The translations under genes and the position numbers were made by a program. Positions 14,899-41,909 of a stretch of DNA of 57,025 nt are shown piece by piece. The notes under the pieces were generated by a model that ran no database searches, was not told the origin of the DNA, and saw only the letters and a list, made by a program, of their open reading frames with translations. The stretch's first letter is position 1. Each line of letters opens with the position of its first letter. Origin of the DNA: Escherichia phage PLYYY01; the sequence record MZ911962.1. One strand, given 5' to 3'.

Positions 14899-15086
14899 TT
14901 AGTAAACTCCCATTCTAAAGTATTACGATAGCTTGATGGTACATAACGCCCAGGGCGTGGATCAAAACTTTTAACTGAAAATTCCAGCGTTCCAGCGCTA
15001 TATAGTTGTACTTTTTGCCCGTCCCACGGTCCACCAATTAGCTTAAAAGTCTGTCTGTAACCTTTTGCTGCTCTAGCCATATTCAC
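14895..15086 (-). CDS. hypothetical protein
   Basis: 63-aa ORF in the minus operon. Confidence 0.35.
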   Translation of the reverse strand: MNMARAAKGYRQTFKLIGGPWDGQKVQLYSAGTLEFSVKSFDPRPGRYVPSSYRNTLEWEFTK

Positions 15087-15123
15087 TCCTTAAAATACCC
15101 GCGCGAACGCGGGTATTATTTTA

Positions 15124-15330
15124 TTACGCTTCCGGTGTTTCCGGAGTTGGCTCATCTGGAACAACAATAACGTCGGCTAAAACTTTCAACGCTTCTTGTT
15201 GCTCAGCGGTCATATTATTCCAGTAATAGACGTGAATGTAAACTACTGGTTTATCCCCATGTTGCCACGGTTCGCGACTTACTACATCCACACCTAAATC
15301 GCTTGCTACGCTCTTTTCTTTACCAGCCAT
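15124..15330 (-). CDS. hypothetical protein
   Basis: 68-aa ORF in the minus operon. Confidence 0.35.
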   Translation of the reverse strand: MAGKEKSVASDLGVDVVSREPWQHGDKPVVYIHVYYWNNMTAEQQEALKVLADVIVVPDEPTPETPEA

Positions 15331-15362
15331 GCTAATGTACCCCTTTAAGGTTTTACACGCAG

Positions 15363-15656
15363 CTAGCCCCCAAAAGTACCCCTATGATCAAGGGTTCTAA
15401 TGCGCTGCTCCAGCCAACGTGCGTTCTTTTCAAAATGTTTATTGGTACGCGCTGCTTTGCACGCATCAATAATACCTAACTCACATCCAAGCTGCGTTTG
15501 TCCCATCACGTAAGAATGGGTTAACATGCTGGATACAAGATCTTCACATTGTAACTTAATAGGATGGTCTTGGCATAATTTCTTTGCCGCATCCTTTAAA
15601 TCCACAGCTTGGACACCAGGCGCCATCAGCAAAGCTACAAGTAATAAACGTTTCAT
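15363..15656 (-). CDS. hypothetical secreted protein
   Basis: 97-aa ORF with a signal-peptide-like N-terminus MKRLLLVALLMAPGVQA and several Cys. Confidence 0.45.
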   Translation of the reverse strand: MKRLLLVALLMAPGVQAVDLKDAAKKLCQDHPIKLQCEDLVSSMLTHSYVMGQTQLGCELGIIDACKAARTNKHFEKNARWLEQRIRTLDHRGTFGG

Positions 15657-15940
15657 TATGCTTTCCCTTTACGACATAAGGCTTGAAGTTCCAGAAGCGC
15701 ATCAATGTCTTCCTGTGGAGTTACACCAACGTGAATTGGATATTTAGCGCGACATTCGTAGCCAACTTCAACAGTGTGGTTAATGTAGCCGTAAACACAT
15801 CCACCAATAACAGTGAAGATAAGCGCAACAATCATTGTAAGGTATTTACCTTGTTTGCGTTCTTCATTTTGTTTATTAAGCTGACGGTTAAGTTCCACCG
15901 CGTCGATTTTACCTTTGTTGTAATCGTCTACTAAGCTCAT
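15656..15940 (-). CDS. hypothetical membrane protein
   Basis: Likely start at internal Met (MSLVDDYNK); one transmembrane segment LTMIVALIFTVIGGCVYGYI. Confidence 0.4.
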   Translation of the reverse strand: MSLVDDYNKGKIDAVELNRQLNKQNEERKQGKYLTMIVALIFTVIGGCVYGYINHTVEVGYECRAKYPIHVGVTPQEDIDALLELQALCRKGKA

Positions 15941-24764: not shown

Positions 24765-24833
24765 CTTAAATCCTCTCGTGAAAAAGAAAGCGCCTCATTG
24801 GGCGCCTTCATTATAACGTGATATGTTTTGATA

Positions 24834-25646
24834 TTACAAGCCGTTCAGGGCTTCCGGTACTGGTACAGGTACGCGACCAGTCACACCATTAAATTTCTTC
24901 CAGCGTGCATACTGGGTTTTAACGGTATCTTCGTTCAGACCATGTCGACCAGCCAGGTTCAGAACATAAGAGATCGGAGCAGGCTGACCCAGCGTAGCGC
25001 TAATCTGGTCCATCAGAGCCCAGGCACGACCGCAGGAAGTTTCCGGTTGCGGACGGCGAACACCGTTCTGTTCAGGCATACGATTAGCTTCTTTTTCTTT
25101 CTCGCGGAGCTCTTTAGCGCGTGCTTTTTCCGCTTCTTTTTCTGCCTGTTTTGCAGCACGGATCTTGTCTTTGAAGCCTTTAATAGTAGCTTCCAGACCA
25201 TCCACCAGACCCTGGGCAGAAGTTACAGCACCGGACAGGTCTTCACCTTTAGACTTCTTAACGACAGCTTTCAGCTCTTTCAGAGCTTCTTTAATGGTCT
25301 TCAGGTTTGCAGATCCCTGAGTTTCTGCTTCCGTGATCTGTTCAACAGTGCTTTCGTCGGTGACGGTAGCCAAAGAGTTTTTCAGGATTTCAGCAGCGTT
25401 AGCAATCGCATTGAATTTGTTTTCCGCTTCAGTGCGGATTTCAGCTTGTTTCTTTTCAGCGGCAGCTTTTTTCTCTGCTTCTTTTTTCTCTTTTGCTACG
25501 CGTGCAGCTTCAGCGGCTGCGGCTTTCTTAGCTTCTGCATCATTCACAGTAGCTTCTTTCTTTGCAGGTTTAGCAGATTTTGCAGCGGCGGCAGCAGCGG
25601 CTGCGGCAGCAGCTTTTTTGTCTTCAATGTTGCTCATTCTCTTCAC
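24834..25646 (-). CDS. hypothetical Lys/Ala/Glu-rich protein with a C-terminal domain shared with the 41235-41909 product
   Basis: 270-aa ORF with a poly-Ala run and histone-H1-like AKK/EKK repeats. C-terminal segment ends YARWKKFNG. Confidence 0.5.
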   Translation of the reverse strand: MKRMSNIEDKKAAAAAAAAAAAKSAKPAKKEATVNDAEAKKAAAAEAARVAKEKKEAEKKAAAEKKQAEIRTEAENKFNAIANAAEILKNSLATVTDESTVEQITEAETQGSANLKTIKEALKELKAVVKKSKGEDLSGAVTSAQGLVDGLEATIKGFKDKIRAAKQAEKEAEKARAKELREKEKEANRMPEQNGVRRPQPETSCGRAWALMDQISATLGQPAPISYVLNLAGRHGLNEDTVKTQYARWKKFNGVTGRVPVPVPEALNGL

Positions 25647-25764
25647 TCCGAATTGTTATGGGTTCGTTTGTTACCAACGGGGTTAAATGTACCAAAGGAT
25701 TTTGTGACACGCAACCCCTTATCTGAATATTTTTAAAAATATTTTTGATCAAGCTTAGAACTTA

Positions 25765-26259: not shown

Positions 26260-26280
26260 TGCAATCCCCTATAAATAAGT

Positions 26281-26304
26281 AATGCCCCAATAGTAGGGGC
26301 ATTA
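26281..26304 (-). terminator. intrinsic terminator (minus strand) after helicase gene
   Basis: Hairpin AATGCCCC-N7-GGGGCATT followed on the minus strand by a T-rich run. Confidence 0.5.
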
Positions 26305-41234: not shown

Positions 41235-41909
41235 TTATGCGTCCAGGCCGTTGTATTTGCGCCAGGCGTAGAACTGAATGGCTACCGTTGTTCCGTTGTA
41301 AGAAGGCATTGCAGCTTTCATCTCTTTCAGCTCCGGCGTGCGGCCCAGCTCCTTCAGAAGCTTGTCACCCATTGCCCACACTTCGGCAGTTTTTCCTTTC
41401 AGCGGCTTGCGAGCGCCATTTTTGAAATCACAGCGAGCAGCTTTTGCATCCTGTTTTGGTGCGGCAGCTTTTGGCTCTTCAATTTTGATTTCAGAAACCT
41501 GCGTGGCAGCTTTTGCGTGTTTCATATCTTTCTCTTCCTCCTGCTCCAGAGCTTCGAGGCAGCTTTTGACAATTTCCGGATTTACCATCGGACGCAGTAC
41601 CGAGACGCTAGCAGCTGGCGCGGCGGTCGGTGCTGGGACTTTCTGCTCGGGCTTTTGCGCTTTTTCGTGATCGCGCAGAACCTGAAGGACTTCCTTTTCG
41701 ATGATGTAAAAACCGATATCGTCCTGATGGATTAACTGTTCGTGTGCGTCGCGTGCAACCTGGCCCCAGCGGGTCTTAAGAGCGCGGCGTGCATTCGTTT
41801 TCATGGTGTAGCGCATTTTGTCCTGTTCGCGGTGAGTTACTTTAGACATGGTATAGCTCCTTTCGTTAAAGTTAGTTTGCTTATTATTGCCTACCGTGAT
41901 AGTAGGCAA
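41235..41909 (-). CDS. hypothetical charged protein sharing a C-terminal domain with the 24834-25646 product
   Basis: Likely start at internal ATG 41849 (AAGGAG 7 nt upstream). Lys/Ala/Glu/Pro-rich middle. C-terminus ends FYAWRKYNGLDA, like YARWKKFNG in the other protein. Confidence 0.5.
   Translation of the reverse strand: MPTITVGNNKQTNFNERSYTMSKVTHREQDKMRYTMKTNARRALKTRWGQVARDAHEQLIHQDDIGFYIIEKEVLQVLRDHEKAQKPEQKVPAPTAAPAASVSVLRPMVNPEIVKSCLEALEQEEEKDMKHAKAATQVSEIKIEEPKAAAPKQDAKAARCDFKNGARKPLKGKTAEVWAMGDKLLKELGRTPELKEMKAAMPSYNGTTVAIQFYAWRKYNGLDA

Follow-up and report, generated by a model that had tools for sequence, protein, structure and literature searches.

A small basic C-terminal domain shared by two proteins of Escherichia phage PLYYY01 belongs to a large phage-restricted family

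Introduction

Two minus-strand genes of Escherichia phage PLYYY01 (sequence record MZ911962.1), here called P1 and P2, encode proteins that end in a similar segment of about 65 residues, and this shared C-terminal domain is the subject of the present study. The whole stretch of DNA analyzed, 57,025 nucleotides (nt) in length, is referred to as the window. Several described systems resemble one part or another of the two proteins. KfrA of IncP plasmids, which consists of an N-terminal helix-turn-helix (HTH) DNA-binding domain followed by a long Ala-rich coiled coil, is alike in joining a small helical domain of DNA-binding type to a long Ala/Lys/Glu-rich helical region. However, the order is reversed in the present proteins, where the arm comes first and the domain last, and the present domain is absent from the 72,556 plasmids searched. 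The KfrA_N model (PF11740, cut-off 26.1 bits) had no match in P1 or P2, and weak matches in two relatives (E=0.0021 and 0.037).

The homing-endonuclease-associated repeat HNH_repeat (PF18780) is alike in being a small helical, HTH-like unit of about 50-55 residues that may stand in tandem, and in its pattern of a helix, a G-R-x-P motif, a helix, and a further helix ending in an aromatic-W motif. In contrast, members of the present family additionally carry an N-G-x-R-R-P hairpin at the N-terminal side and a W-R-K-F signature, typically have the domain once, at the C-terminus and preceded by an Ala/Lys/Glu arm, and also differ in their associations, as no HNH or GIY-YIG nuclease domain was found in P1, P2, or the relatives scanned. 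The MuF-type (SPP1 gp7/Mu F) head proteins carry members of the same domain family, twice per protein, beside ParB-like, HExxH, and ADP-ribosyltransferase modules, whereas P1 and P2 contain no MuF domain.

A likeness to linker histone H1 and H1-like proteins, which the first-pass annotation of the window had noted for P1, proved to be compositional only. It comes from the poly-Ala run and the AKK/PAKK repeats of the first 35 or so residues, while the remaining Ala/Lys/Glu-rich region of P1 is nearly charge-balanced and confidently predicted to be helical, and P2 has no such region. Neither the linker-histone domain GH1 (PF00538) nor any other Pfam domain was found in P1.

The window is essentially a complete siphovirus genome of the genus Seuratvirus (subfamily Queuovirinae) and of the 7-deazaguanine group, because the P1 and P2 regions matched Escherichia phages KS_W4, OddieOddie, Seurat, CAjan, and others at 92-98% identity over their full length (megablast), and the records of KS_W4 and Seurat are classified in this genus and subfamily. 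Phages of this group replace part of their guanine by 7-deazaguanine derivatives. The structural genes lie on the plus strand of the window, and the replication, recombination, and DNA-modification genes on the minus strand. P1 is located in this latter module, between the helicase gene and queE, and P2 is one of the first genes in the leftward early unit.

Results

Homology of the two C-termini

The products of P1 and P2 aligned in their C-termini only, with 20 identities in 69 positions (29%), 48% positives, and E=8e-6 (BLASTP with compositional adjustment), while their low-complexity regions reached only E=0.9-35. When each C-terminus was searched against six-frame fragments of the window (phmmer), only itself and the other were matched (E=5.6e-5 and 2.6e-5), and the next fragment stood at E>0.8. 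Because of these exclusive matches, the number of detectable domain copies in the window is exactly two, and no third copy was found at E<0.5. Similarly, a profile of 50 family members and a profile of the P2-family C-termini matched with a probability of 99.1% (hhalign, E=1e-18, 65 columns), and the C-termini of both P1 and P2 matched the family phrog_21588. The C-terminal 65 or so residues of the two proteins are hence judged homologous by sequence comparison, and an origin of the similarity in chance or low complexity was rejected on the BLASTP value, the exclusive mutual matches, and the hhalign value.

The first-pass annotation had described both open reading frames (ORFs) on the minus strand and had proposed a shared C-terminal domain, with a pairwise alignment as the check. 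Both ORFs and the quoted C-terminal sequences were found to be correct, and the significance of the alignment bore the proposal out. The same annotation had ascribed long Lys/Ala/Glu-rich regions to both proteins; these are strong in P1, while P2 has instead a Pro/Ala/Glu/Lys-rich linker of variable length.

Size, signature, and architectures of the domain family

A word-indexed protein search with the P1 domain alone returned a single match, and an exhaustive profile search was needed to recover the family. Using HMMER, a five-sequence profile was searched exhaustively against 1.84 billion cluster representatives (50% identity), where 2009 clusters were found at E<=1e-3 and 726 at E<=1e-10. 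The family carries the signature N-G-[VI]-[RK]-[RK]-P … W … [QE]-[YF]-x-x-W-[RK]-K-F. Among 50 diverse sequences, one Pro and one Trp were invariant, and Asn, Trp, Lys, and Phe columns were conserved in more than 90%.

A single copy of the domain, usually C-terminal, was found in 153 of 166 family proteins. The N-terminal extension ahead of it had a median length of 98 residues and consisted of 24% Ala, 15% Lys, and 12% Glu. The other 13 proteins contained two to three tandem copies with similar spacers, and five of these (P0034, P0047, P0116, P0122, and P0136) were MuF-type head proteins of 665-973 amino acids (aa) with two copies each. The Pfam domain Phage_Mu_F was found in four of the five and an ADP-ribosyltransferase domain in one, and HExxH motifs could be read directly from the sequences. 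The two domain copies adjoin a ParB-like domain in this protein class, the ParB-like match being weak, below threshold, and present in one protein. Another kind of fusion partner, an N-terminus like SAP/Rho_N, was found in many relatives in the paralogue that adjoins the P1-type gene. According to one proposal, polyvalent proteins of the MuF class accompany the DNA during injection (PMC5512222), and the MuF-linked copies place the domain in such presumably packaged and injected proteins.

No model of Pfam-A 2025, NCBIfam 2026, or PADLOC covered the domain above its cut-off. In PHROGs, the domain is split over at least seven families of 'unknown function' (11298, 18634, 21588, 17772, 22313, 7864, and 28664); P1 and P2 gave full-length profile matches to phrog_11298 and phrog_22313, respectively, both so marked. 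No paper naming the domain was found in the literature. These genes are not dealt with in papers on Queuovirinae defence escapers, KpAvs2, retron Eco2, polyvalent proteins, and the phages Iggy, R7M, and Vid5, and a P1 homologue is not named among the virion proteins in the portions seen of the reports on the relatives R7M (14 proteins; PMC8265664) and Vid5 (11 proteins; PMC6266253). The family is hence large, phage-restricted, and undescribed in the libraries searched, where PHROGs alone holds it, as 'unknown function'.

Predicted fold, charge, and links to DNA-binding families

A model of the domain built with AlphaFold2 from a 50-sequence alignment consists of a short β-hairpin followed by three helices (helices 18-33, 39-48, and 53-67 in the P1 domain), with a predicted local distance difference test (pLDDT) score of 88 and a predicted template modeling (pTM) score of 0.73. 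The hairpin carries the N-G-x-R-R/K-P motif and the last helix the [Q/E]-[Y/F]-x-x-W-R-K-F motif. The family is basic, with a median net charge of +4 (5th percentile +1) and a median isoelectric point of 9.5. Conserved basic residues cluster in three places, namely the hairpin (R11 in 66% and R12 in 86%), the beginning of helix 1 (K18, 58%), and the C-terminal end of helix 3 (R64 in 96% and K65 in 98%).

The predicted fold is a generic, winged-helix-like one. Its likenesses are to common winged-helix and three-helix domains, including the RecX repeats, the C-terminal winged helices of MCM and RPA32, cullin WHB, Zα, and the MecI/ArsR/PadR repressors, and none of these stands out. Additionally, the β-hairpin of the present domain precedes the helices, whereas the wing of a winged helix follows helix 3. 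The viral structure library BFVD returned uncharacterised family members only.

Profile links of the domain to DNA-binding families of the HTH type were weak but recurred. The match of P2 to PF18780 (14.4 bits, E=0.048) lies below the gathering cut-off of 26 bits, and P1 had no match. The cut-off was reached by MuF-linked copies in P0116 (27.1 bits) and P0136 (29.1 bits), and matches of MuF-linked copies to Sigma70_r3 were below threshold.

Distribution among sequenced phages

The domain was found by tblastn in about 150 of 50,697 phage records. By host genus, these included Escherichia (40), Pseudomonas (31-32), Vibrio (23-24), Rhizobium (13), 'Enterobacteria' (8), Providencia (4), and Salmonella (3). 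These counts mirror those of the phages that encode a full-length relative of the window DpdA (155 records at a coverage of at least 80%), while the hosts of more distant DpdA proteins, such as Mycobacterium (56 records), Cellulophaga (7), and Streptococcus, were absent among the hosts of the tblastn matches. Since the counts follow the full-length DpdA clade and the distant DpdA hosts are missing from the tblastn matches, the domain is a signature of one large clade among sequenced phages, the Queuovirinae and their relatives, and its distribution is better explained by vertical inheritance than by a general link to DpdA.

Synteny and an ancient paralogue pair

The gene order helicase, one to three small genes, P1-type gene, queE, queC, queD, folE, dpdA, clamp, and polymerase is kept in relatives, including Pseudomonas phage NP1, Rhizobium phage RHEph04, Vibrio phage AQKL99, a Stenotrophomonas phage, Achromobacter phage ART (95 kb), and Microcystis phage Me-ZS1. 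In Synechococcus phage Ssp-JY38, the P1-type genes are located just beyond the polymerase gene, beside the same module. In 78 of the 80 best IMG/VR loci, the P1-type gene was directly followed by queE (median gap 61 nt), and the other two loci end within 160 nt. Every inspected genome of the clade with this DpdA type encoded a P1-type protein, its gene nearly always standing directly upstream of queE.

A further copy of the domain was encoded upstream of the P1-type gene in 51 of the 80 loci, most often 1.3-1.8 kb away. The N-termini of these upstream paralogues carry either the 'Y-x-x-K-x-N-A-[KR]-R-A' domain, as in P2, or the SAP/Rho_N-like motif. A Cys4 insert (CPHC…CLGCG, similar to a Zn ribbon) was observed between the N-terminal and the shared domains in seven loci (L022, L023, L025, L036, L048, L049, and L051), and a looser Cys4 pattern was matched by 18 of 57 complete upstream-paralogue ORFs.

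When scored with subfamily profiles, the P1 domain reached 119.7 bits with the queE-proximal profile versus 65.6 with the upstream-paralogue profile, while the P2 domain reached 51.0 bits with the upstream-paralogue profile versus 33.6 with the queE-proximal one. Both subfamilies span phages of Alpha-, Beta-, and Gammaproteobacteria and of Cyanobacteria. P1 and P2 are thus an ancient paralogue pair of the phage clade, because their identity is low and each falls into a separate ancient subfamily, and a recent duplication inside this genome was rejected on the same two grounds. In Seuratvirus, the second paralogue is found in the early region, about 16 kb from P1, instead of adjoining it. Of the earlier suggestion of a duplicated DNA- or protein-binding module, the module holds, as a shared unit predicted to fold independently and with binding as its most reasonable role, while the duplication within the genome does not; the nucleoid-associated or regulatory role that was also suggested may apply.

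The phrog_7864 gene upstream of P1 may record a loss. Its product aligns with only part of the family profile (Table 1) and with NP1 gp41 at E=2e-4 (BLASTP). In relatives (NP1 gp41 and positions 15049-15720 of locus L003), the C-terminal end of phrog_7864 is a third, degenerate domain copy, and the window gene is without that end. NP1 encodes three adjacent domain-bearing genes, where the C-terminal copy in gp41 has an independent E-value (i-E) of 2.4e-5. The Seuratvirus phrog_7864 gene seems to have lost this degenerate third copy.

Integrase/primase islands outside lytic phages

Two-domain proteins of the P2 type, of about 140 aa (for example, P0190), were found in Comamonas, Pseudomonas aeruginosa, and various metagenome-assembled genomes. 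They are encoded in islands of about 8-9 kb that contain a tyrosine integrase, an HTH_17 protein, a DUF3987 primase-like protein, and DUF5681, and no que genes (Table 1). A scan with a strict, narrower alignment pattern through one genome each of 185,579 species identified 20 loci, three of which were Queuovirinae-like phage contigs. The islands look like phage satellites, possibly ones with Queuovirinae-like helpers. Inside the L007 island, a reverse transcriptase (RVT_1) and an HTH protein were observed, and a nucleotidyltransferase/HepT pair was observed alongside the L004 island.

Structure of the two genes and their surroundings

P1 is composed of a low-complexity Ala/Lys N-terminus, a long helical Ala/Lys/Glu arm, and the shared domain. 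In a single-sequence AlphaFold2 model of full-length P1, residues 12-33 had a pLDDT below 50, and the arm formed helices 36-92, 101-130, and 138-188 with a pLDDT of 82-96. The arm is nearly charge-balanced, with a net charge of +2 over residues 36-92 and 138-188 and of 0 to +2 in each helical segment. A Foldseek search with full-length P1 returned only generic helical bundles (E>=0.12). The ATG at 25637 is probably the true start of P1 rather than the GTG at 25646 (9 nt longer): a GGAG lies 9 nt upstream of the former, and it agrees with the 804-nt annotation in KS_W4 and Seurat.

GenBank records give the same P1 homologue the labels 'transcriptional activator FtrA domain-containing protein', 'transcriptional activator', 'outer capsid protein', 'plectin 1', and hypothetical. 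FtrA is composed of an AraC-type HTH and a DJ-1/PfpI-like domain. None of the FtrA, outer capsid, and plectin labels was backed by a profile match.

P2 is composed of an N-terminal 'Y-x-x-K-x-N-A-R-R-A' domain, a Pro/Ala/Glu/Lys linker, and the shared domain. Its start is probably the ATG at 41849 and not the TTG at 41909 (60 nt longer), and positions 1-204 of the 204 in the phrog_22313 profile align with residues 21-224 of the longer ORF (E=2.7e-142). The N-terminal domain had no Pfam match. In a local profile search, it was present in 83 of 244 proteins, mostly close variants either of the P2 family or of one island protein; it also matched the separate 50%-identity representatives P0066, P0094, P0098, P0100, P0107, and P0159, and at least 15 of the 57 upstream paralogues in the metagenomic loci. 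Homologues of P2 at 85-98% identity vary from 179 to 214 aa by insertions and deletions within the linker, of which phage VogelGryff lacks about 23 residues. Judged by this variation, the linker behaves as a tolerant spacer.

The two terminator-like hairpins of Table 1 bracket a two-gene cassette of the phrog_7864 gene and P1, and a terminator is annotated in phage Seurat at the same place between P1 and queE. A hairpin with a T run was observed just past the stop codon of the P1-type gene in 19 of 66 distinct related sequences versus 7 of 330 shuffles, and many other sequences at this place had GC-rich hairpins without a T run. An AT-rich palindrome is located at 25735-25746, in the 118-nt gap upstream of P1 (AAAAATATTTTT, then AAAAATATT). 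As a candidate operator it was rejected, as it occurs once in the window, the number expected by chance.

Table 1. Coordinates of the features discussed in the text (window positions, except for the islands, which are given by locus)
Feature	Position	Strand	Remarks
P1 gene	24834..25637	-	267 aa from ATG 25637; phrog_11298, E=5e-111
P1 low-complexity N-terminus	25542..25637	-	Poly-Ala run, AKK/PAKK; predicted disordered; net charge +5
P1 helical Ala/Lys/Glu-rich arm	25083..25541	-	Residues ~36-188 (270-aa numbering); three long helices predicted
P1 shared domain	24873..25082	-	RMPEQNGVRRP…RAWALMDQ…TQYARWKKFNGVTGR; profile match i-E=2.4e-30
P2 gene	41235..41849	-	204 aa from ATG 41849; ribosome-binding site AAGGAG
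P2 N-terminal domain	41664..41849	-	Residues 1-62; unannotated; recurs fused to the same C-terminal domain
P2 linker	41430..41663	-	Pro/Ala/Glu/Lys-rich; length varies among close relatives
P2 shared domain	41238..41429	-	DFKNGARKP…AEVWAMGDK…AIQFYAWRKYNGLDA; profile match i-E=7.8e-18
phrog_7864 gene, upstream neighbor of P1	25765..26259	-	164 aa; residues 1-162 align to profile positions 1-163 of 242
Terminator-like hairpin	24786..24809	-	Between P1 and queE; 9-bp stem with 6 GC pairs, then T run
Terminator-like hairpin	26280..26304	-	After the helicase gene
Islands with a P2-type protein	L004/L005/L006 9204-17518; L007 3259-11759; L099, L101, L102, L105, L107

Discussion

The reading tentatively favored here is that the shared domain is a DNA-anchoring module that tethers variable front ends. 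It would bind nucleic acid, probably double-stranded DNA, and thereby tether whatever is fused in front of it. The front end of P1 would be its helical Ala/Lys/Glu arm, serving as a spacer or an oligomerisation arm, and P1 itself would serve the replication/DNA-modification module as an accessory protein associated with DNA. The front end of P2 would be a second small domain, made early in infection, and the low-complexity stretches would be spacers rather than the functional part. Among the readings considered, a nucleic-acid anchor is best supported because the spacers differ in length and composition but the conserved domain does not, and because this domain is basic, HTH-like, combined with DNA-binding modules of the SAP-like and ParB-like kinds, found in tandem copies, and encoded in the DNA-metabolism module. 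Several observations weigh on the other side. DNA binding is a prediction for all members of the family, drawn from their sequences and the model, and searches of the Protein Data Bank sequences with both proteins and the family profile returned nothing meaningful. The links to Pfam are at or below threshold for most members, with HNH_repeat matching three of 50 sequences (E<=0.1) and KfrA_N one of 50. Plasmids, where a generic DNA binder would be expected too, contained the domain in none of 72,556 records. Additionally, no repeated DNA motif was found as a candidate binding site, the one palindrome checked being that upstream of P1.

A protein-protein docking module, bringing the different front ends to a common partner such as the helicase, the clamp, the polymerase, DpdA, or a host protein, is an unlikely alternative. 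Among the nearest folds, several are winged helices that bind proteins or repeats that bind RecA (RPA32C, cullin WHB, the MCM winged helix, and RecX), the restriction to phages and absence from plasmids would be accounted for, the distribution among sequenced phages is that of one clade with the same replication module, and two to three paralogues per genome with different N-termini would fit a common docking site. The basic charge, however, is uniform across the family, and the SAP-like and ParB-like fusions fit DNA better. A single conserved phage partner is unlikely as well, because the domain also occurs in the integrase/primase islands and in MuF proteins that are without the phage replication module. 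A role of P1, P2, or both as sequence-specific transcription regulators of the phage, for example in an early-to-late switch, is rather more doubtful, although the fold is HTH-like with the third helix as its most conserved element, and P2 is among the first genes in the leftward early unit. Under this explanation, the P2-type proteins conserved in the integrase/HTH_17/DUF3987-primase/DUF5681 islands would be satellite copies of an activator of the helper, as Delta of satellite P4 is to the Ogr protein of phage P2. The label 'transcriptional activator' in several GenBank records of P1 homologues agrees with it in name, but it has no profile match behind it, and no AraC/FtrA, DJ-1, or other regulator family was found in Pfam or NCBIfam. 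Tandem copies in head proteins and Ala/Lys/Glu arms would be unusual for specific regulators, and the single palindrome checked gave no candidate operator motif.

The fixed place of P1 could also point to an accessory of the 7-deazaguanine DNA-modification system, which would load or guide DpdA, or read or protect the modified DNA. The adjacency to queE in the IMG/VR loci, the same placement in all annotated relatives inspected, the position beside the same module in Ssp-JY38, and the match of host-genus counts to the full-length DpdA clade are all in its favor. The whole module is syntenic by descent, however, and adjacency by itself therefore says little; P1 and queE have a terminator-like hairpin between them in both the window and Seurat; the Mycobacterium, Streptococcus, and Cellulophaga hosts of DpdA phages are missing from the hosts of the domain; and the domain occurs in islands and MuF proteins without que genes. 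On balance, this role is considered very unlikely, and its extended form, in which the P1-type protein is an unrecognised component of the phage 7-deazaguanine machinery and the domain a DNA 'handle' borrowed by satellites and head-packaged effectors, is a long shot. That the similarity is a by-product of low complexity, chance, or recent duplication in the genome is scarcely credible. Ala, Lys, and Glu abound in both proteins and their pairwise identity is low, but the alignment lies outside the low-complexity parts with significant and exclusive matches, the invariant and near-invariant columns recur across the 50 sequences, and each copy belongs to its own ancient subfamily.

If the domain is a plain, non-specific DNA anchor, the result would be useful but modest. 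The fold class is ordinary, and the family marks a clade and keeps an unusually constant place next to queE. What is gained is a compact domain family of about 2,000 clusters (50% identity), newly defined with respect to the profile libraries searched. For annotation, it marks two to three genes per Queuovirinae-like genome and would replace the contradictory GenBank labels, in a group of phages that the BASEL collection and studies of 7-deazaguanine DNA make use of. As a basic domain of 65 residues, it should be easy to express and is amenable to DNA-binding tests. The domain also links the replication/modification module of lytic phages, the satellite-like integrase-primase islands, and the effector-bearing MuF head proteins, which are normally studied apart.

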